64,000 nucleotides of DNA, taken from contig OX597818.1 in the NCBI GenBank assembly GCA_951406725.2, positions 102,858,001 through 102,922,000 on the forward strand, in the 5' to 3' direction. Each line of letters begins with the position of its first letter. Position 1 is the stretch's first letter. Below are positions 27,927 to 44,608 of this stretch, piece after piece. The DNA is from Octopus vulgaris. Lineage: Eukaryota. The notes under the pieces are model-generated. The model did not search any database and was not told the DNA's origin. It saw only the letters and a program-made list of their open reading frames with translations. Position numbers and translations under genes: made by a program.

Positions 27927-30215
27927 AGTTAGTTAGTTAGTTAGTTAATTTGGCTCAAAAGCAAATAGCAAGGCCATGTAGGGGGACATGGAGTTAAGTA
28001 CAGGGTGGTGTTCATGTAAAGAGTTCAGGCCACTTGAGGTCAAGGGAGGCTTTGAACAAAGCGGTCGTCGGCATCTTCACCATCTCGTCTGGCAGCTTGT
28101 TCCACGGATCCGCAACCCGGACGGAGAAAGCTCCTCTCCTTCGATTGAGATGAAATCGTCGCAGGTAGAGCTTTTCGGAATGACAGGAGTGAAGAACAGC
28201 TCTTTCGAGAGGTTACACTTTCCGCTTATGATGTTGTGGGCGAGAATGAGATCACCACAGCAGCGGCGTTTTTCAAGAGAATAAAGGTCGAGCGTCCTCA
28301 GCCTTTCTTCATAGGACAAATTTTTGAGACCATGAACCATGCGGGTAGCCAGCTTCTGGACTCTTTCGAGATGCTGTATGTCTTTGAGGAGATAAGGAGA
28401 AGAGGCTTGAATCCCGTATTCCAATATGGGTCTCACCAGCGTGACATAGAGTGGTAGGAATATGGCTGCTGTGAGCATTCCGAATGACCGTCGAATCAAG
28501 AACAGAATTCCGCGTGCTTTGTTGGCAGCATGGACGCACTGGGCCGAAGGCGAAAAGGAGGAATCCACCAAGATACCCAGGTCCTTTACCTGATCGGTCC
28601 TCTCCAGCAGCAGACGACCCGGCTCGAAATCAAGTTGAGTTGCAGGAGGAGAGCCAACAGGCAGATTACAGCACTTTGACACGTTCAGACACAGGTCCCA
28701 TTCGTTAGACCACTTCCAAATTTGGTGGAGGCATCGACAAAGATCCTCTATATCACCGCGAGGAGCGACCAGTTTGATATCGTCGGCAAATAGAAGGGTG
28801 TGTTGCGTGAGGTCGTCGGGCAAGTCATTTATGAAGACTAAGAACAATAAGGGCCCAAGCACTGAACCTTGAGGCACGCCACTGCTTGCACTGGAGACGT
28901 CGGACCGCGAACCATTAACTTGGACTTGGAAGGAGCGATCTGAGAGGAAGGCGCCAACCCATCGTACAATATCCGGATGGAAACTATATGCTTGAAGCTT
29001 GACAAGTAATAGGCGGTGGTTTACCGAGTCAAAAGCTTTGGCAAAGTCCACAATAAAACGATGTCAACATCATCACTATCATCGAGGATGCGCGTCACCA
29101 ATTCTTCCATTACCAGTAAGTTGGTCAAGCATGATCTCTTCGGCACGAAGCCGTGTTGGGAATCAGAGATAGAGGCTGTGTTTTTCTTAAGGATGGTTTC
29201 GAACATCTTGCTGATTATTGATGTAAGGGAAACCGGTCGGTAGTTAAGCGGGTCTTCGCGGCTCCCTTTCTTGAAAATTGGGCAGATTATCGCTGTTCTC
29301 TAGTCCGCAGGTATAACACCCGTCGCCAATGACATATTGAATAGACGTGTTAAGGGTTCGCAGATGACCGGCGCCAACGCTTTGATAACCCGTGGGTGTA
29401 TGCCGTCAGGGCCGTGACCCTTGTTGACATCGAGGCCTTGAATAACACATTTGACTTCGTCCCGCGTGATGACCAATCGAAGCATTGGAGGTACCGATCT
29501 ATCAAATGGAGGGGGTTCACGACCATCATCTTGTTTGAAAATAGTTGAAAAAGCCTCGGCAAATAATTGACTCTGTTGATAAGGGTCCTCAATCGATACG
29601 CCTGTTGAGTCTACCAACGTTGCAATCTGGTTGTTCAAGCGGGAATTCCGTTGGACATGGGCAAAGAAGGTTTTTGGATTGCTACTGGCATTTGCCGCGA
29701 TTTTGTATTCATAACTGAAGCGTTCTTCCTTTTCAATTTTCACGGCTCGGTCTCGTTGAGTTTTGTACACCTCAAAAGCTGCAGTCGAATCCAGATTTTT
29801 GAATTCAGCCCAAGCAATATCTCTGAGTCGACGTTCTCGTTTAACCTTCTTCGTCACCCAGGGCTTGTGTTTCTTCTTCTTGGGAAGCCCAACGGGAACT
29901 GCCTGATCAGTCAACCAGATTACATATGCTTTGAGGGATGACCATAGTTCGTCAACTGAGGACAACGTCATCAGGGATCGCCAGTCCAGAAGCGCGGAAG
30001 CCTCGGTTAGAATTTCAAGATTAATTGCAGAGAAGACTCTACGTGGCAGCGAAGTAGTCGTGGGCATAGAAAAAGTTGTGTGCATGACGAACTTCAGGAC
30101 CGCATGATCACTCTTGGCAAGAGGGGCGCAAACAGATACGTCTGACACAGACCGATGCCTTGTCGGATATTCAACATGTTGCGATAGAAAACAATCTTCA
30201 GCCACGTCAAGAAGG
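27927..30215 (-). mobile_element. 5'-truncated CR1-like LINE (end of endonuclease plus RT), frameshifted
   Basis: SDH motif, KGHGPDGI, QHGF, DFAKAFDSV, GVPQGSVLGPLLF, FADD, LERVQ; (AACT)n tail; GCAATT TSD at 27921-27926 and 30216-30221. Confidence 0.96.
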
Positions 30216-30579
30216 GCAATTGCAGCTATTAACAGATTGAGGAGATATAACCTTGGCAGAAATCCCCCTATCTCTATTCCTATTGATAGCATTGCACCTA
30301 TTTTCATTCTACCCAAGTTTATCCTTCTGTCATTATAGAAGCAATCCAATTTCCTGTTGTTAAAGGAGGAAATGATGGTCGCTAGATTATTCGTAATGCT
30401 ATATCCTATTCTAAAACTGTAACATTGAATGTGGAGCATATGTATGTTTATTAATTTTTATTATTTATATCATTATGTATATTTATATTTATATGTATAT
30501 GAGTATGAGTATATGCACTCATATGTATATGTATGTTTTATTATGGGTATATACCCACACCTTTATAAGTATATATGTA

Positions 30580-32975: not shown

Positions 32976-34055
32976 AAATATAGAGGATGCTCATCTGCTG
33001 ATCAGAGTGGTTATCAGTGATGGTAGAGTTGAAATTGCTGAATTCATGGTGGTGGAAGGTTACGTGCATGGAGTTATGAATAGAGTACTCTTTTACTTGT
33101 TTCAGACATATGACTGTGGCCATGCTAGAGCACGCTATTAAACGAGCAAATCAACGCCAGGACTCATTCTTTGTAAGCTTAGTATTTTATCGGTCCCTTT
33201 TGCCGAACCCCTAATTTACGGTGACGTAAACACACCAGCATTGGTTGTCAAGCGATGTTGGTGTGTGTGGGGGACACACACACACACACGACAGGCTTCT
33301 TTCAGTTTCCGTCTATCACATCCACTCACAAAGCTTTGGTCGACCCGAGGCTACAGTAGAAGACACCTGCCCAAGGTGCCATGCAGTGGGACTGAACCCA
33401 GAACCATGTAGTTCGTAAGAAAGCTACTCTTTTTTATCGAATTTGCCATAGAGGCAGTACATAAGAGTATGGTAGCTTGCGGGCTGGACAAGGACCTTAA
33501 TGAGATAAATGATAATGATACAAGGACGATAAGGATGGGAGAAGACAAAAAGCGCCAGCCGACCTTTGCTTCTCTAAAAGCAATTTTTTTTTTTTTTAAA
33601 TACTGAGGTATTAAACCTCTTACAATATTGTTACGCTTTTATGAGCAAAAATGTCCGTTACAATTGAAAACAATTACATCAATAAACTCTTTTGACTCCA
33701 GCAGGTATTCCAGCAAGTTGGGGTCCTTTACACATGATCTATAATCTTCCTTTGTGAAGGAGTCCATTATGTGAGAAAGGTTCCTTTCTTCCAGTACCCG
33801 AGCAGCCACCTGTGGAGGCCACTCTAGAAAACAAGTCGAGTCTATTAGGTCCTGACTATCAAAGGAACTTTCTATATAGTTCTCTACAGCCCCTCCCCTG
33901 AGATAGAAGATGACGTTAACATTTCCACCGTGAGAAAGAATCTTGAAATGCACAATTTACATAAACATTTCTCACACCAGAGATCTGCAATAAACAATAA
34001 ATCCAAAACTCAAGAAGACAAACAGGAAAACAAAGGCCAAGTAGATACTTAAACG

Positions 34056-34061
34056 TTTATT
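34056..34061 (-). terminator. Polyadenylation signal AATAAA of the Ubl-eL40 gene
   Basis: AATAAA about 30 nt after the stop, followed by a T/GT-rich tract. Confidence 0.8.
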
Positions 34062-34092
34062 CAGTTGAACATCACAATAAAATATGTAATGT

Positions 34093-34186
34093 TTACTTTA
34101 GCTTCTTCTTGGGCCGCAGATTATTACTGTGGCCACATTTCCTTTTACGGCAGTTGGTAGCACGTGGGTGAAGGCGAGCATAGCAC
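34093..34186 (-). CDS. UBA52: Ubl-eL40 fusion, last coding exon ([31 protein letters not shown])
   Basis: cttttag|GTGCTATGCT...AAGTAA; 94 nt. Total CDS 103+87+103+94=387 nt = 128 aa plus stop. eL40 C4 zinc-finger cysteines intact. Confidence 0.97.
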
Positions 34187-36400
34187 CTAAAAGAACAGTG
34201 AAAGAAGATATTAATTTACTGGGACACAGAGTAATGTGATAAACAAAGAGTCAATAGTACACTGTCATACAGGGTATTAGAAGTAACAAGTAAATCTCTT
34301 AAATGATACTCCCTACTATACAATATATTTTGTAGCCCAAGCAATCAGTAGTGATCAAGACTGCAATATCTTTGCTTAATTTTCCTTAATTGCAATACAA
34401 AGAATATAACTGGGATTGAATCTGTATGTAGAAGTGAAAGACAAGGATCTAGATAAAAATTAAACCCAGCCCAGGGATTTAGTCAGTCATTCAGAATCTA
34501 ACCACATATATTTTTCTGTGAGAGGGCCTGTCAAGCCAAGTGAAATCGTAGTGCGGCTGACATTGGTACCATGTAACTGGCACTCGGGCCAGTGGCAAAT
34601 AGAGAGCACCTTTTGAGCATTGGACCTCACAGAGGCAATGACAAATGACCAACACCTTTGGCATTCTCATGTTTAAAAACATCCAAGAAGCCTAGGAAAA
34701 TCAGTCATGGCAGATACTGATGTCGTGAACACCCATTACACTCTCAGAGTGGCTGGCATTAGGAAGAGCATCCAGCTGGTGCAGCCTTCCAACCCAAGTC
34801 AAAGCAACCAACCTAAGCCAGCATGGACAACGGACGTTAAATGATGAAGATGACAACATACTAGCATATAAGACACATTTGTAGGGGAAAAGTAATTCTG
34901 TGCATGTAAATACAATGCTGTGACAGTATATTTGAACAAAGTATGAAACCGTAAATTCCTCACATAAACTACATTATATGAGCACTGTATTTCAATTCTA
35001 TCCATCAGATCAACTGCATAATTGTTTCTACTTTGATCAAGAGAATTGTCATACAGTATGTAAAACATACACATACTATGATGTTTCATGTTACCATGAT
35101 TGGCCATCAGGGAGGTGTGCCACACTACCTTGTCATTAACACATTACAAATAGCTGAGAAACTGATAAAAATTACATTCCTCTCACCCTTCTAGAATTTC
35201 ATTTACATTATCATCATAAACCATTTAACCCTTTAGCATTCAAGAGTACCTATTTCTTTACTACCCACAACAGACAAACGGATTAAGCCGATTATATCGA
35301 TCCCAGTGCGTAACTGGTACTTATTTAATCAACCCCGAAAGAATGAAAGGCAAAGTCGACCTCGGCGGAATTTTAACTCAGAACGTAGCAGCAGACAAAG
35401 TACTGCAAAGCATTTCGGCTGGCATGGTAATGATTCTGCCAGCTTATTTATTCACATTATCTTGAATTAATCATGCACTACCTCATAGCTTTATGGTTTT
35501 GAAGATGTGCTCATTTATTCTTCGAATGGCATTGTAAGGTAGGTGTGAGAGGCCAAATCTAGCTGTTTTGAACACAAACCAGGTAAACTATTTGGGATGG
35601 ATATAGCCGATTTAAACGCTAAAGGGATAATGATTTTTTTTTATTTATGTGCCCTTATCAAGCCTAGCCAGGCTCATGGGCCCGGTTTCAGTGGCACACG
35701 TGTTCCCCCAGTTGGATGGGATGCCAGTCCATCGCAGCGTTAGTCAAGAAACAGGAAGAAAGACTGAGATAAAGTTGGGGCGAACGAATACAAGAGGGGT
35801 CGCCACCATCCCCTGCCCGAGCCTCATGGAGCTTTTAGGTGTTTTCACTCAACACACACAACGCCTGGTCTGGGAATCGAAATCGCGATCCTCCGACTGC
35901 GAGTCCGCTGACCTAACCACTGGGCTATTGTGCTTCCACTAAGGGTTAATGATACCATTCATTAATCCTTTAGCATTCTGCCTGTTTTACAGTCAGAACC
36001 AGCCCTTTAGAAACTGTCTTATAATGTTGTTCTATAAATGCTTATGGGTTAAATAATGTATGACACATCAGGTGTGGATTACATATACCAGGTGAGAAGG
36101 TACGAGATGTGATCTCTCCATATAACTGTCAACATGCCATCAGCAATTATTGGTAAGTTAATGCTAACACATGGATGTTTTGGCTTCTTTTTAATACTTT
36201 ACTTGTAAACTTAGCAGATCTAAGCCCATCCATCTCCCTGCCCTACAACACTTGGTCCCTTCTGTAATATAGTTAGTTACATTAAATGCAGGGTAATTTT
36301 TTTTTTTTATACTTGTAAAAATACGAAAGCATAGCCAATATGCTGGCAAATACAGTAATTAATTCCAATCTAAAAACAAACAGTAACAGATTGTACTTAC

Positions 36401-36503
36401 TTTCGGCAGATCATCTTCTCACAGTTGTATTTTGAAGCAAGCATACGTAAACTGGGTTCAATGATACCACCAGGAAGGCGGAGCAGCAAATGGAGAGTAC
36501 TTC
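36401..36503 (-). CDS. UBA52: Ubl-eL40 fusion, coding exon 3 ([35 protein letters not shown])
   Basis: gttgcag|GAAGTACT...CCGAAA|gtaagt; 103 nt; contains the GG junction and the eL40 N-terminus. Confidence 0.97.
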
Positions 36504-36584
36504 CTGCAACACAACAATGAAGAAATAAATATTAATTCAGAAATAATTCACAAAGTACAAACATTCTTACTGTGTTGCCTTACT

Positions 36585-36908
36585 GACACCTGTGCTAATG
36601 GCATGTGAAAAAAACATTTGAGTGAGGTTGTTGCCAGTGCTCCCGGACTGGCTCCTGTGCAGGTGGCACATACAAAGCACCATTTGAGCATGGCCGTTGC
36701 TAGTACCGCCTGCCTGGCCCTAATGCCGGAGGCAAGTAAAATCACCCACAACACTTTCAGAGTGGTTGGCATTAGGAAGGGCATCCAGCTGTAGAAACTA
36801 TGCCAGATCAGATTGGCGTCTGGTGCAGCCAACTGGTTTGCCAGACCTCCGTCAAATTGTCCAACCAATGCTAGCATGGAAAGCAGACGTTAGAAGATGA
36901 TGATGATG
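36585..36908 (+). mobile_element. 3' part of a SINE/LINE-tail family with (GAT)n tail
   Basis: GGTTGGCATTAGGAAGGGCATCCAGCTGTAGAAAC...GCATGGAAAGCAGACGTT; relatives at 34540-34855, 54975-55200, 58878-59063 and 62705-63190. Confidence 0.8.
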
Positions 36909-37572
36909 CACAAGGTGAAAAATCAGAGAAACCCAGTTGCTGATTGGTGCTCGAAGTTATCAAACTCGGAAAAATGAAAAGCTCAGGTTGATCTCAGCCA
37001 GATGGAGTACCACTCTTACACCTAATGCCCTAACAATTGCCATTTGGCTTTCCAAGGTGGCAAAGAATATAGAAGACTTTTTTCAACAGCTGGATGACCT
37101 TGCTGTCATGAATCGTCAATTGTTTTGAAAGCTATTTTCCATTCAACTGGCCTGCACATGTCAAAACTGCAGTATCAACCATTTCCTTTTCTGGATACGC
37201 ACTGGGGTCGATATAACCAACTTAATCTGTTTGTCCCCTCTGTGCGTAGTCCCTTGTGGGCAGTAAAGAAATAAGATAAAGCTTACATTACTAATATTGC
37301 ACAAAAGTTACAGGATAGCAATCAATCGTATTTCATCCTGTTAATGTATCAATTTGATTCACAAGTGAACATAAACAGAGATACATACTATAGGTAAAGA
37401 AAACACTTGTTCAAAAGAACTGTGCAGTAGGATCAAACCTGGAAGCATATCATTGCAAAGAAAACAACACAACTGCTGAGACATTGCAAAAATGTTATGC
37501 TAAACTACCTTTCACCAAAGGACACTAAAACATTTCCAATGCTAAACAACATGAAAATACCAAAGATCTTAC

Positions 37573-37659
37573 CTGTACCAACACCATATTCACTCAAGCT
37601 AGCAGTTTCGTCCAGCTGTTTGCCCGAGTACACAAGTCGTTGCAGGCTCTGGGGGATTC
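37573..37659 (-). CDS. UBA52: Ubl-eL40 fusion, coding exon 2 (GIPQSLQRLVYSGKQLDETASLSEYGVGT-G)
   Basis: ctttcag|GAATCCCC...ACAG|gtaaga; 87 nt, phase 1-1; aligns to ubiquitin residues 35-64. Confidence 0.95.
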
Positions 37660-37957
37660 CTGAAAGACATTTAGCATAATTAAAGATTTAAACATTAAGC
37701 TGTTTATTGTATGACTTAGCTAAGATTCAATTATGATCAGAAAATACATAAAAAAAGAAAATCCTTGCTGGCTAGCTCCATGAATAAGTGTCAAACCCAC
37801 CCTTATCAATGTAACCAACACAGACATGACAAAAGGAGAGGACACTACCAATGTTCCAAAATGTATGCATGAATGGAAACCAAACCTAAAGAACTTGTTG
37901 CTGTGCAGCTCCAACATAAGCACGAGATGGAGAGTGGTTTTTATGATATGCTGAAGA

Positions 37958-38165
37958 TCTTACTTGTACTTGTGACGGTATTCACCCAGTGTGGGTTGAG
38001 CCGGCTTCTCTGGTCCTAACAGCATCACAAACCATGGCGGCCCATGCTCGACGGTTCCATCTGCGGAACTGATAGTACGGAGAGGTACTCCTTTATCATT
38101 GTTGCCCAGGCCTTCAGCTGACTGCCCGTGCGTTTGCGCCAGCTGGCAACAGGGCATCGCGAATC
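37958..38165 (-). mobile_element. RTE-like LINE 3' fragment in intron 2
   Basis: WRKRTGSQLKAWATMIKE remnant; (CAAGTA)n tail. Confidence 0.7.
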
Positions 38166-38464
38166 AGCTGATTTGTGATGCTGGAGATCAACTAACAATG
38201 AGGTGCAAGCACTTTTCAGGTTAAAGATTACATTGCCCATATTAGTCACTATTTTAATGTTCATACTTTTAAAGGTCAAACAGGATTTGTTGAGACAGCA
38301 AAATTACAAACAAGACCACTTGACAAGGAGATAGAAACACAATCTAATATAAATACAATGGGCTTCTTCTCAGTTTCTATTTACCACTTAAACCCACAAA
38401 TTTTTTAATTAATTTTTAATAACAGTTTGAAACTTTGTATACTGGTGGAATGTCTCACACAACA

Positions 38465-39205
38465 CGGTTCACTTTGAACATTTTGGACAAAATTTGGTAT
38501 TTTAGAAGTTATTTTGTGTTAAAGTTGACGCATTTGGATAATTTCAACCAATCAATGATATGTATTCAGTTGAAGAAAGCTACTACTGCTTGCGATAGTA
38601 ATAGAAGAGGAACTTCTGGGCCACCTCTACTAAATGTCACCACTCTGTTCTATTTTATTTATTGTTTACTGCCTGTGTTGTATATTACATGCCTTTTTTT
38701 TTTGATTCTCGTGTCATAACCAGTAAACATCAAAGAATCAACACCAAGAAGGAAGAAATATTATTCATATATATTTATACGTTTACCTGACATTGGTGTT
38801 TTACCTGCACATAAAGTGCAACAGTGTTTAAAAGACCTATAGAGCTATGAGTCTGCAGTTAGCTTTTTCGGCGTTGATGTATATGTAATTTCAAAATGCC
38901 CTATTTTACAACTATGAGATGTATTGTCATTGTTATCATTTTATCTAACTGTAATCAACAAGAAACACATTTTGTCTATATAAAAGTCTTTATTTGATTA
39001 AAGATGGCATTGTCTTCATTCGACATACGAATAGAACAGAGGGGACATTTAGCAGAGACGATACGGAAGTTGTTCATTTTCAATTACTATCGCAAACAGT
39101 AGTAGCCTTCTTCAACCAAATACACATCACTGATTGGTTGAAATTACCCAAATACAACATGAAATAACTTCTAAAATACCAAATTTTATCAAAAATGTTC
39201 TGAGT
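38465..39205. mobile_element. Old inverted-repeat (MITE-like) element in intron 2
   Basis: ~38475-38603 is the diverged reverse complement of ~39083-39200. Confidence 0.7.
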
Positions 39206-39224
39206 AAAACTGTGCTGTGCGAAT

Positions 39225-39531
39225 TACATTATTTACATTTGACGGATATTTGCTCTCATGTTTCAGCTGATAAATCCTCCAGCCTTCGGGCATATGGCAT
39301 AGTGGTTAAGAGCACTGGCTACTAACCCTAGGATTCCGAGTTGAATTCCAGGCAGTGACCTGAATAATAACAACATCGAAAAATAACATGAACCCAGGTT
39401 CAAAATATCCCCCAAGACACCTCATGAAGGTTGGAGAGTATATTAGCAAAAACGTTGAGTAAATAACAAACAAGATGAGGACAAATATCTTTCAAATGTA
39501 AATAATTCCTCATCTCTTAAATATAGAACTG
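39225..39531 (+). mobile_element. tRNA-headed element with a degenerate hammerhead and a 5' inverted segment
   Basis: Head GGGCATATGGCATAGTGG... from 39288; degenerate hammerhead at 39416-39460; 39225-39287 is an inverted copy of its own 3' part. Confidence 0.75.
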
Positions 39532-40559
39532 GGCGTTCCTTTGTTTTAACTTGACAATTCACTTTGGATATCTTCGTGACCCACGAAAATTTGCAGATTA
39601 TACATACACAGATGAAGCAGATAAGAACAAATATGCAAGGCTTTTTGCTGGCATAATTTCATTATATCTATATTCCACAACACATTAATACATAAAAACA
39701 GAACACGCACTCTGTTATGGAGGTCACAACGATATCCGAAGGGAATTGTCGAGTTAAAACAAAGGAACGCCATATTAAAAAGAATTTAAAAATCTGTGAG
39801 CCAAACAGAACAGAACAGATCCTACCCAGGACTATAGGAAATACTTCACCCTTTCACTACATTTCTGTTGAAATACTCTTTGAAACATGCGTTCTCAAGC
39901 ACATTGGCAACAAAAGGATTAATTTAGGTGCTGTGTAGTGGGAGTGAAACCAAAACCACGTGGTTATGAAACAACCATCAGAAATGAAGTTATTAAACGT
40001 ACTAGTTGGAGCATGGCAAATATAATGTATTGTAGACATTACAGCTGAGTACTTTTCTACACTAGTAGATGATGGGTTGTGCTCATAGCAGAAGTATGAA
40101 GGGGAAATCCAGAACACAAACTATACAAAGGATGCCAACAAATTGGGTAACATTTACAACTGTAAGAGTGGACAGATACTATATATTTAAAAAACAGAAA
40201 ATCACCAATAAACATACAAAAAAGGCACTACATAGGAATATGGCTGAGAGCAGAACTTAAGGAAATTCAAATAATGAGCATCTGAGAAAGAAAAAAAAAA
40301 AAAAAAAACCTAGCTCAGTTTAACATGGAAAGGATTTTACAAAAGCAGGAGACAAAACTCTACTAGTAAATACAGGCACACTATGTCATAGTTGCAACTC
40401 TGCTTTTATGGAAAATTAAGTGAGTTTCAATATTTATTGCCAAGCTAATATTGCAGTCCAGAAATATAGGACAAATGCTGCCGTTGATTAGCTCCAAGAG
40501 GCCATCACCTCTAGCTATCTAAGTCACACACGAACCTGTGTCCATTATAACCTTCGAAC

Positions 40560-40930
40560 ATCATCAATCATCATTGTTCGACCGTGGTCGAGACAATGGA
40601 ATTTACCATGCTACGCCAGACTTCACGGTCCATCATGGCATTACGGAGGTCCTGTTGCTGGATGCCTGTATCCCTGGAGATTACATCAGGGTAGGAGAGT
40701 GTGCGCCCTCTGGTATTGCAAGTAAATGGCTTCCAGAGAAGAGCAAAAATTACCACTTTTTCAGCTCTACAACAATGTCCAGCAAACTGGACTCTCCTAC
40801 CTTTCACAAGAGATGACACAGATGGTAGTTTCCCATATATTTGCGTTTTGGTTGGATGGCGGTTCCACGAGAAATTTTGAGCTCTCATAAGGAGGCGAGT
40901 GTAGGTTCCATCCAACCGCCTCTCCTTCGA
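40560..40930 (-). mobile_element. RTE-clade LINE 3' fragment in intron 2
   Basis: ORF 40571-40915 (DGTYTRLL...FAGHC...MMDREVWR); (TGA)n tail. Confidence 0.85.
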
Positions 40931-41403
40931 ACAGATGAGGTCACATATAATGGACGCAGGACTGCCACATTAGCTTGGTGATAACTATTAATATCCAGTA
41001 CCACTGCCGTAGTCTCCTTTACAGAGTCTTAGAAATATCAATATTTCTATAAGTAAATTTCAATTTTTATATAAATATACACAAGCCAAAAACATTTAAT
41101 ACATATGCTCAGCTACTCTATTTCTGTTTTCCTTTATAAAATTCTGATTTTACCATGCCAGACGTTGGCATCCTCAACACATTCGTTCCTCTTCATCTAG
41201 ATGGTTTCCACATGTAATTACCCAAATTTTTGCTAACATTAATCACAATTTATTCCTTTCATACTGTACAACTGCCAAACTGACATAACCACATTCTTAT
41301 GTGTGAAGCAATAAACGTAACTACTTTTTATTTCCATCTATTACTATCAAAACCAGAACAGAAAAGGTTTGATGGAAGGAGGAGAAATGCACAAAATACT
41401 TAC

Positions 41404-41506
41404 CTTCCCTGGCTGTAATTGAATCCATCACATCCATTGTGGTGGTGGATGAATGCATGTCCAGGGCCAGGGTCTTCCCAGCCAAATTCAATACAAAGAG
41501 TTGCAT
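41404..41506 (-). CDS. UBA52: Ubl-eL40 fusion, coding exon 1 (MQLFVLNLAGKTLALDMHSSTTTMDVMDSITARE-G)
   Basis: Acceptor tttcag|ATACGAAAATG (exon starts 41514); 103 coding nt; donor G|GTAAGT; aligns to ubiquitin residues 1-35. Confidence 0.95.
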
Positions 41507-44500
41507 TTTCGTATCTGAAATGAGAAGTCAACAATATCACTGTCTGCATAATATAGTGAAAACAGACACTTCTCCAGATCAACTGCAACGAAGACCCACT
41601 CCATAAATAATTTACAAAGCTAATTCCCCAAACCCAGATTATTAAAATTAGCAAACTCGGAAGAAAATATGAATTTTTGGAAACTTTTAGCACCATAGGG
41701 TATTAGAGAATCCAGATTACATATTCCACTGACTTACCTATCAGCCCTTCATCTAGGTATTAACACCTTTTTTCCCTCAGATGTAGTCTATAATGTTATA
41801 CATGTATTCCCACTACTGGGCAATTTGCTTTTGATGTCAGATCATATCTATAGCAGCATCTTTACTTTTTAATTAGTTTACAAATCACCATCATCACCCT
41901 CAGGTCTGCTCACCATGCTGGCATGGATGGGATGATTTGATAGTTGACCAGCTTAGGAGCTGCCAGGGCTCCATTTGTCTGTTTTGGGGTGGTTTTTACA
42001 GCTGCATGCCCTTTCCAATGGTAACCACTTTACAGAGCATACTAGATACTTTAACGTGGCACCACAAGATGGAGATCTCTCAGCTAAGTAAGGGATGTAT
42101 GCATAGACAGCCAAGATTTTATTTAGTTTAGCATATCTTCTCAAGTACAGCAAACCAGTTCCTTATGTCATCTATGAGGCCCAACATCAGATCTTTCCTC
42201 ACCACTTCATCTTCGGTCTCCCTGGATCTACCCTCTTTTACATGTTCCCTCCCTTTAACTTCTAAGAATTAAATTTGATTCAGTTACAATCACTATATAT
42301 ATATATATTCACTATTGGACAAAGAGAAACACTGCTCAGTGGGATGCTGGTTCTCTGAACACTAAACCTTTTGGCATACATGATACTTTAAATACTAAAA
42401 TACAAAGCCTTGTTTTTAAAGAGCTTATATTGAAATTCAAATTTTCTAACATTATAAGCTATGTATGCATAGCTTAATTCTTAATTCCTTTTCACCATTG
42501 AAAGTTTATCAACACTTCATAATAAATCTAAATTTCAACTCAAAGTACATACACTGAACAAAATTGATCAATGCAATTTTCAAATGTTGCAATGGGGAAA
42601 AGTTACTTAGAACAACCAATAACTTCTACATACAAGAATAACATAATCCATGAATAAAGTTAACCCAATTTGCCTGTGATGCTCCAGGTTTTATGATACT
42701 AAATTCCTGTTTTAAATTATCTAATTTAAAAAACATAAAAATTTTATTACATACCAAATATTTCTTTATTATTATTTTCACAATTTATTGAAGCAAAAAG
42801 TGTTTACAATAGAAATATGGTAACTAATAATTTGTGGGTTTCAACATAATTCCAGAAAAGATTGAAATTTTCTGCAACATTGACTTAAGGATAGGATTCT
42901 TGACATCTAGTTTAGCATGATATGCAGAACTAAGTTCAAATGTAAAATTGTTTGAATTGATACAAGAATAAAACACCTTTCTGGCAACATTTGAAAGTTG
43001 AATCCAATCTCAACCAAACAAATCTCTCACAAGGCTTTGAACCCCAAATATTTCACATCACTTATATAATAAAAGTTTTTCTTATCCCCTTAAACCTACA
43101 AAAATTCGATATTACTTCCCTACCCCCACGAATTCAGCTGTTTCAGACACGTGATTTATACACTGTGCTTCACATAGCAGAGGGCAAAAAGAAAATCGTC
43201 ACTACATTGTGTAGAATTCTGCACAACGCCAGCAATTTTTCAGGGGAAGGGGAAAGTCGGTTAAATGTCAAAAGAAAGGCAAAGTTGATGAGCAAAATGG
43301 TTATCAATGACACCGGTTTCCTATACGCTATCTTTTAAATTAGTGCACATGACTACGAACGTAAAAAATTTAATATCTACGTCTCATCTGCCACCTATAT
43401 AAAATATAGATGGGAAGCATAATAATCATACAGGAGAAAAACAATATATACTAATTGTACACGACCTTGACCTACAGATTACGTTACTAATAACCGACAA
43501 ACATCCAATTAGTTTAAAAGGGTGTTAAGACTCGGCATTTTATTCCTTTATCCATTCTAATATATACCTTCGATCATCAATAAATTATTTCAGCACTAAG
43601 GATATACACGCCCAGAGTTCGGAGATCAGAGCTCTTACGGAGTATAAAAGGGCTAATAAACGGTATTCTTCAGATCATAAGTACCTGAAGTTTATATGTA
43701 TTCAACACAATAAAGTCGTTGTTGTAAACATTTAACATATCCCTATAAGCTTTGAAAACAACAAATAAAATTCATAATTAACATTTTAAATATTAAACCG
43801 TCTTAAAATCGTCCTTGGTCCTGCAAGACAAACTTCCATTTGTTGCAATGACCCCCCAGCAGGATACACCAATTTACTCTCCACCAGCAGCTTAAATAAT
43901 GACAACCCTATCTTCCTACATTCTCTAATATTCTGAACATTAATTGAAGCATAATTTATATCCATATACATAATAGATATCTCCATATCTTGACAAGCAA
44001 CAATACACGAAATTCTCGGCCCTTGAGTCAGTCTTGAACGGCCAAATTACCATATTATACGTGTATAATATGGTATATTATATATATATAAGAAAGGATT
44101 GCGTAATGGGATAATGCCGGACACCTTTGGGTCTCAATGACACGAGAGAGAGATGATTATGATATATATGAACATACACGTTGGAGTTCTATTTTCCTGG
44201 TCGTATCACAAAACCTATTTGTATATGCATGTATATAAATACAACAAAATATCTATCTCCCTGGATAGAGAGGAAAAGGCAGCAGCAGCTTAGTAAAGAG
44301 ATTACTAGCAATTAATGCTATTATCTTGATAGATTAACAAATAACTAAAGTGTTCAACGACATCTTAACCGACTCCGAGTCCGACACGTGGTGTAGCACG
44401 GCAACTACCACGAAACAAATATACAAAGAAAAGACATACACGCTGATTTATGTACAATATAAACAGGTGAGAGGTATTTAGCAACGGTTAGGGTTTAATA

Positions 44501-44584
44501 AAATTACATTTTAATGCTTAAAAGATCCATAAATAAGGAATAAATGCACAAAAATATGCGACGTAAAATAAAATGGTGACTTAC

Positions 44585-44608
44585 CTCAAGTTGAAAAACG
44601 AGAAAGAG
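44585..44608 (-). other. UBA52: Non-coding exon 1 (5'TOP leader) of the Ubl-eL40 gene
   Basis: Minus strand reads CTCTTTCTCGTTTTTCAACTTGAG|GTAAGT: a polypyrimidine TCT/TOP start followed by a consensus donor (GT at 44584-44583). TSS is approximate. Confidence 0.8.

Follow-up and report, generated by a model that had tools for sequence, protein, structure and literature searches.

The ubiquitin-eL40 fusion (Ub-eL40; human UBA52, yeast Ubi1 and Ubi2) is a 128-residue protein in which 76 residues of ubiquitin and 52 residues of ribosomal protein eL40 are joined at a Gly-Gly. The DNA analyzed here, referred to as the window, is a stretch of 64,000 nucleotides from the Octopus vulgaris genome (assembly GCA_951406725.2, contig OX597818.1, positions 102,858,001 to 102,922,000), and it carries on its minus strand an eL40 gene with the same length, layout, and junction. 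The octopus introns at codons 35 and 64 fall where some mis-spliced vertebrate records, P0223 and P0214 for example, show break points. Unlike canonical Ub-eL40, the octopus protein has a leader that matches ubiquitin at 37 of 76 positions; the match is 74 to 76 of 76 in all 32 scored control records from animals (named, neither tick nor coleoid, and picked by hand; 4 of 36 were left unscored).

Diverged UbL40 ubiquitin has been described in two Plasmodium lineages, Vivax and Ovale, and earlier only in Giardia lamblia (Dalhuisen et al., 2023; PMC10457151). The Giardia and Plasmodium proteins resemble the octopus fusion in that the same gene is affected, eL40 is conserved, and the predicted fold is retained, and a chaperone-only role was proposed for them (PMC10457151). 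Plasmodium leaders have 11–23 differences from ubiquitin and mostly all seven lysines, whereas the octopus leader has 39 differences, two lysines, and Pro74. The octopus gene is a divergent UbL40 in the same sense, with a diverged leader, a conserved eL40, and canonical ubiquitin encoded elsewhere (polyubiquitin and RPS27A).

Leaders of other ribosomal fusions are also comparable. FUBI, the leader of FUBI-eS30 (FAU), is ubiquitin-like and lysine-poor like the octopus leader, with a di-Gly end and a non-polar residue before it; K27 is its sole lysine (PMC8354635). FUBI, however, is fused to a different ribosomal protein and has a separate origin, and the octopus leader keeps L71, R72, L73, R42, Q49, and K48 but not K27. 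The nematode UBL-1 (Caenorhabditis elegans) and protist UbS27a leaders, like that of octopus, are leaders of ribosomal ubiquitin fusions that escaped conservation, the nematode one also in an animal lineage. There the eS31 fusion has diverged and the eL40 fusion is canonical; octopus shows the reverse.

The accessible text of PMC10457151 lists nematodes for UbS27a only and no animal UbL40, and it asks whether such events are more widespread. Diverged eL40 leaders were missed earlier because a 2021 review dropped leaders with less than 80% identity from its survey (PMC8122580). No description of an animal case (cephalopod, tick, or other) was found in the literature searched, which did not extend to subscription papers, including Catic and Ploegh (2005). 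A diverged eL40 leader therefore appears to be undescribed in animals, although the kind of event is already known. An earlier note on this DNA, made from the sequence alone, knew of no animal eL40 case. That statement stands as far as animal papers are concerned, but the novelty is lower than it implied, because the Giardia and Plasmodium cases are published and records from ticks, a rotifer, and a planthopper are similar.

Leader and eL40 of the octopus fusion

Compared with the polyubiquitin unit of the same genome, the octopus leader has 37 of 76 identical residues, 39 differences, and no indel. K11 and K48 are kept, and K6, K27, K29, K33, and K63 are lost. Other changes include I44V, V70L, and R74P; G75-G76 is kept, and the tail is LRLPGG versus the canonical LRLRGG. 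Near identity to the polyubiquitin unit, a set of seven lysines, and an LRLRGG tail, which mark canonical ubiquitin, are all absent from this leader. PF00240 matches residues 3–73 (62.1 bits) as a single 76-residue ubiquitin-family domain, and PF01020 matches residues 78–127 (108.1 bits). The Gly-Gly immediately precedes eL40, which begins IIEP and is 45/52 identical to mammalian-type records such as P0228 (Microtus). The earlier note had described four GT-AG coding exons, a 128-residue product, and these same identities, lysines, and substitutions. The exons yield the identical product, the leader comparison holds against the genome's own ubiquitin, and the eL40 figure holds against the mammalian-type records. 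Retention of both K11 and K48 is true of the octopus protein, but across coleoids only K48 is common to all (cuttlefish has Gln at position 11 and retains K6).

A structure prediction, proposed in the earlier note as a check, returned a beta-grasp. In the AlphaFold2 model of the leader, built from a 25-sequence alignment that included ubiquitin, the predicted local distance difference test score is 85–91 over residues 1–70. The model superposes on ubiquitin (2zcb_B) with Z 16.2 and a root-mean-square deviation of 0.6 over 73 residues, and Foldseek agrees. The leader is thus predicted to keep the ubiquitin fold. Six of 18 core positions are changed, five of them to residues that are still hydrophobic or aromatic; overall 17 of the 18 are hydrophobic or aromatic, the exception being I23T.

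Surface residues fall into kept and lost sets. In all five full-length coleoid sequences the I36 patch is intact (4/4), the I44 patch is mostly kept (6/8; I44V and V70L changed), Q2 and F4 are unchanged, and R74 is the only tail residue lost (5/6). Lost in coleoids are most of helix 23–34 (2/12 kept), the acidic set (0/7), and the TEK set (0/5). These patch lists draw in part on PMC10611586; the set kept in coleoid leaders is the surface of ubiquitin that the ubiquitin-specific protease (USP) USP36 contacts (PMC10611586). Invariant in 5/5 coleoid sequences are L8, R42, K48, H68, R72, and Gly-Gly, and all five have Pro74, a non-polar residue before the di-Gly. None of the 27 aligned fusions departs from the Gly-Gly or the junction (27/27).

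Gene structure, transcript, and copy number

The eL40 gene has five exons, the first non-coding (Table 1). Its coding part is 387 nt long and encodes 128 residues plus a stop, and all coding exons are bordered by AG acceptors and GT donors. The pyrimidine tract that begins at 44608 is a TCT start resembling those of the 5' terminal oligopyrimidine (5'TOP) type. An Rfam scan of the window gave no matches.

Table 1. Features of the eL40 gene and of repeats in the window (window positions; UTR, untranslated region).
Feature	Position	Strand	Description
Non-coding first exon	44585..44608	-	From sequence and the 41514-44585 joint; starts with pyrimidine tract; GT donor after 44585; true 5' end possibly a few bases further up
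Exon 2	41404..41514	-	8 nt of 5' UTR, ATG at 41506, leader codons 1–35 (coding 41506-41404, 103 nt), then phase-1 intron
Exon 3	37573..37659	-	87 nt; leader codons 35–64, then phase-1 intron
Exon 4	36401..36503	-	103 nt; leader end (LRLPGG, residues 71–76), predicted cleavage after G76, eL40 residues 1–22, then phase-2 intron; PF01020 match
Exon 5, coding part	34093..34186	-	94 nt; remainder of eL40 and TAA stop
3' UTR	34037..34092	-	AATAAA from 34061; poly(A) addition at about 34037-34042
Intronic high-copy repeats	34986-35710, 36600-36900, 37200-37280, 40416-41139		Very high summed contig depth; probably octopus short interspersed elements and remnants of long interspersed elements (LINEs)
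LINE-like frames	28077-30457	-	Two long frames, interrupted between; resemble LINE endonuclease/reverse transcriptase (judged by motifs)

Splicing was checked, as the earlier note had proposed, in contigs of four public runs; these cross the introns and end in poly(A). The RNA nature of the runs is a guess rather than on record, backed by the GT-AG joints and poly(A). Joints 36502-37572 and 37658-41403 occur in 4/4 runs, joint 41514-44585 in two (X1 and X11, whose shorter flanks cover 34 and 24 letters), and joint 34184-36399 in one. Loose poly(T) ends at the poly(A) site occur in three of the four (X1, X3, and X9). Contig depth is about 700 to 25,000 for spliced joints versus about 2–20 for unique intron contigs in the four runs. 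Because contig depth cannot rank genes, we claim splicing and not an expression level, and contigs cannot establish the transcript start. Three large runs, a DNA control for the 36502-37572 joint, read across the exon-intron borders (the positive-control contig was absent from this comparison). All 17 variant sites are intronic, which is a weak signal (P about 0.045 when both exons are counted and 0.12 when only the leader codons are).

This gene is the octopus UBA52/RPL40, and genome searches turned up no other eL40 locus. A PF01020 search of the 2.8-Gb genome found no second eL40 locus; its 2 matches among 51 scored candidates are two exons of the eL40 gene. A canonical Ub-eL40 query gave 24 genome matches, of which only the same two exons matched the eL40 part well. 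A hidden second copy is unlikely, and it keeps some room because the searches score best candidates only; the assembly may also be incomplete. The earlier note had named a canonical paralog supplying all eL40, together with a dN/dS near 1 in the ubiquitin-like part, as the finding that would make this gene a decaying duplicate. No canonical Ub-eL40 was found in the octopus genome, and the view of this gene as a decaying duplicate or assembly artifact, which could draw only on the same limits of search and assembly, is largely refuted and barely credible. Besides the lack of a second locus, independent runs and records have the same sequence, and eL40 is identical between octopus and cuttlefish.

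Two loci were rejected as eL40 paralogs. The match on C9 (L052, G000:C9:41708957-41709025) is a short polyubiquitin fragment over a unit junction, with no eL40 or other exons in 30 kb. The match on C8 (L029, G000:C8:44684116-44684388, minus strand) is an intronless ubiquitin-like copy, after which come 11 residues left over from a second unit and then a stop. This copy is 46/76 identical to ubiquitin, also ends RLPGG, and is probably a degenerate polyubiquitin derivative.

Other loci in the genome encode canonical ubiquitin. One polyubiquitin array on C3 has 11 identical canonical units, and the Ub-eS31 gene (RPS27A) on C4 encodes canonical ubiquitin in its aligned exons. FAU is a separate gene on C4 with the tail RMLGG. 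The polyubiquitin array (L030, G000:C3:117301601-117304096) is followed by a degenerate twelfth unit of 43 residues, which ends WLRGGF, instead of a one-residue cap. An intronless eS30 copy with an internal TGA (L031, G000:C27:29112126-29112299) is likely a processed FAU pseudogene.

Diverged leaders in cephalopods and other animals

P0121, whose records are labeled Octopus vulgaris and O. sinensis, has exactly the sequence of the window protein. Leader identity to the window leader is 73/76 in O. bimaculoides, 64/76 in Argonauta hians, and 55/76 in the cluster holding Sepia pharaonis. The leaders of these orthologs match ubiquitin at 37–40 of 76 positions, and eL40 is 52/52 identical in all full-length ones. 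In the five full coleoid sequences, 21 derived residues (R74P included) are invariant and 31 positions are unchanged from ubiquitin; P0124, a coleoid record broken in eL40 (22/52), is outside these counts. Invariance is higher in residues 35–76 (35/42) than in residues 1–34 (17/34).

Octopus and cuttlefish differ at 21 of 76 leader positions and at none of the 52 in eL40 (Fisher P 5e-6). With these counts, constraint on the coleoid leader is intermediate: judged by sequence comparison, it is less constrained than ubiquitin yet far from neutral. Mytilus, Mactra, and Lingula have canonical leaders (75–76/76). Because octopods and cuttlefish share the diverged leader and bivalves are canonical, the divergence predates the octopod-cuttlefish split, which places its origin, on present sequences, on the stem of coleoids or at an earlier point in cephalopod history. 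That split dates to approximately 270 million years ago. A metagenome scan with the leader gave 16 loci, 31–53% identical, with no coleoid among them, and an Atlas look-up returned only generic ubiquitin/NEDD8 clusters, below 0.9.

Chain m of the octopus ribosome (PDB 9EHO) was deposited with the sequence of the O. bimaculoides ortholog. In the available parts of the octopus ribosome paper (PMC13321053), "ubiquitin" and "L40" are absent from the main text and ubiquitin in the supplement refers to ligases only; a supplement legend reports octopus proteasome genes under relaxed selection. The leader change would predate this relaxed selection because it is also present in cuttlefish.

Homologs in other animals were surveyed in part. 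The eL40-only search covered the best 120 of 1208 matches, and the full-length search the best 120 of 1258, mostly double-ubiquitin proteins. In a representative-protein search, polyubiquitin repeats dominate the 150 matches listed, and nothing on eL40 leaders is among them. Many low-identity "leaders" come from gene models that are truncated or mis-spliced, and these were left out of the tally. Among the matches listed, the leader is diverged in all 29 named tick records from seven genera (25–36/76; proteins P0156-P0164, P0170, P0248-P0272), with Gly-Gly kept and the tail LRLVGG or LRLLGG. K27 is the only lysine kept in most hard-tick leaders outside Ixodes. Other diverged leaders among these matches (proteins P0238, P0204, P0181, P0207, P0195, and a subset of P0218-P0245) are from Seison nebaliae (23/76), a Laodelphax striatellus record (33/76), P0181 (an ENA record, 49/76), and ten further records with a mite-like eL40 (45–51/76), seven of which end NLCGG with R72 and R74 lost. 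One partial record ends LPGG, and its bacterial label is doubtful.

Tick fusions are like the octopus fusion in having a diverged leader with Gly-Gly kept, R74 lost, and eL40 conserved. Tick leaders are unlike that of octopus in having mostly other substitutions, deletions near residues 57–61, and K27 kept. Of the 21 coleoid-fixed changes, the tick majority shares 6. The nearest eL40 to that of ticks is from a mite whose ubiquitin is canonical (50/52), and the nearest to that of octopus is from bivalves (48–49/52). Because few substitutions are shared and the nearest eL40 relatives differ, separate origins of coleoid and tick leaders are the simplest reading of these alignments, bearing in mind that a firm tree cannot be built from only 52 eL40 residues. 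In PDB 6zj3, chain L2 is a 126-residue eL40 precursor scoring 104.6 bits versus 153–184 for canonical precursors, which is consistent with a diverged leader in a protist. The organism of this entry is presumably Euglena.

Role of the octopus leader

Yeast produces more eL40 when ubiquitin is attached to it in cis, and SUMO can partly take the place of ubiquitin; the uncut precursor harms 60S maturation and elongation and impairs GTPase binding (PMC6721733; PMC8122580). By these yeast results a leader requires a stable fold and a cutting site, which are the very features kept in octopus. Like FUBI, the octopus leader is probably a cis-chaperone that is cleaved off, and it is likely not conjugated. 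In a cephalopod ancestor, the ubiquitin on eL40 would have been freed from the constraint on ubiquitin. Selection would then have retained only the core, three hydrophobic patches, and the tail read by USPs, and the chain-forming lysines and the surfaces for conjugating enzymes (E2), ligases (E3), and receptors would have been let go. The leader would fold like ubiquitin, aid eL40 production, and be cut after Gly-Gly by a deubiquitinase; once freed, it would stay out of the working ubiquitin pool, and the 11-unit polyubiquitin gene and RPS27A would be what provides ubiquitin.

Position 74 has a central place in this proposal. R72 is the residue selected by the ubiquitin-activating enzyme (E1) and suffices for E1, and non-native residues at 74 block E2-to-E3 transfer (PMC3731359). 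R74A lowers HECT transthiolation (PMC11374688). R74P would thus hinder transfer of the freed octopus leader from E2 to E3. It may also narrow the range of cutting proteases, like the non-polar residue at the same place in FUBI, which limits cleavage to USP16 and USP36 (PMC10611586). The 29 named tick records, also without R74 and with Gly-Gly, support the cleaved-chaperone reading. The earlier note had suggested a working gene with a FUBI-like leader, and this agrees with the sole eL40 locus found, which is spliced and polyadenylated, conserved in coleoids, and represented by its ortholog in 9EHO.

Several points weigh against this reading. The fold model leans to the ubiquitin fold because its alignment held canonical ubiquitin. 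Proline at 74 is absent from the substitutions in the available parts of the cited papers, and a literature search for R74P and ubiquitin gave one unrelated paper. Loss of R74 is not universal in diverged leaders; it is kept in the Laodelphax record, P0181, and 3/10 mite-like records. A natural uncut ubiquitin-like leader is present on Giardia eS31 (PMC8122580). Conservation of the C-terminal half, with K48, R42, R72, and H68 invariant, may exceed the need of a pure solubility tag, so that an interaction partner is conceivable. PMC11568203 neither supports nor excludes that the freed leader meets a di-Gly C-degron fate.

Such a partner would be expected if the freed leader were a coleoid-specific modifier, activated by the ubiquitin E1 and attached to targets or used as a K48 chain cap, with its own readers. 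The invariant E1 selectivity residue R72, with Gly-Gly, K48, R42, H68, and L8, would suit this role, as would the 21 new residues fixed over octopods and cuttlefish, and the possibility was raised for the Plasmodium cases (PMC10457151). The conserved residues are, however, the same as those a USP needs for cutting, K48 is lost in most tick lineages (2/13 keep it), and the blocked transfer expected without R74 argues against attachment. The earlier note had offered a lineage-specific modifier as an alternative; no test here supports it, and the loss of Arg74 and of five of the seven lysines disfavors it, making it improbable. Still less probable is a leader that remains uncut as part of the ribosome, as reported for Giardia Ub-eS31, with Pro74 blocking cleavage. 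A proline near the scissile bond can block proteases, and the Giardia precedent and the 128-residue sequence deposited for the 9EHO chain could be read this way. The deposit is uninformative on cleavage because most ribosome entries list the full precursor, present or not. The invariant Gly-Gly and junction, the impaired GTPase binding of the uncut yeast precursor, and the silence of the octopus ribosome main text on ubiquitin and L40 also speak against an uncut leader.

A further reading extends the cleaved-chaperone reading and does not replace it. The leader might be a gate cut by a few USP16/USP36-like proteases, with eL40 release as a regulated late 60S checkpoint, by analogy with FUBI removal for 40S. 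The residue before Gly-Gly is non-polar in coleoids (Pro), ticks (Val, Leu, or Met), Seison (Leu), and 7/10 mite-like records (Cys); a non-polar residue at this place restricts FUBI, and K27 is the sole remaining lysine of most hard-tick leaders, just as it is in FUBI. In the coleoid leader, however, the I44 patch still has polar surroundings (R42/Q49); in FUBI these surroundings are hydrophobic (Pro47/Val40) and form the second restricting feature. We consider this gate rather unlikely.

There are two candidate answers to why ubiquitin has remained attached to both eL40 and eS31, ribosome-matched ubiquitin supply and chaperoning (PMC8122580). A single-copy, conserved animal gene that keeps the fold and the cutting site but has lost most signaling surfaces separates the supply and chaperone roles, and the coleoid, tick, and other cases are natural replicates of the residues that a ribosomal leader needs. 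To the question of Dalhuisen et al. (2023) on wider spread, these records answer yes, in animals too. Since the kind of event is known, the gain is one of scope and testability and not a new principle. It is a speculative and unlikely generalization that animals (coleoids, ticks, and further lineages) have repeatedly made the ubiquitin of eL40 into a second FUBI, non-conjugatable and lysine-poor, with a non-polar residue before Gly-Gly and a dedicated protease, which would gate 60S maturation and uncouple ubiquitin supply from large-subunit synthesis. By analogy, the octopus gene shows how FUBI could have arisen, and the annotated "ubiquitin-L40" genes of cephalopods and ticks probably yield no ubiquitin.

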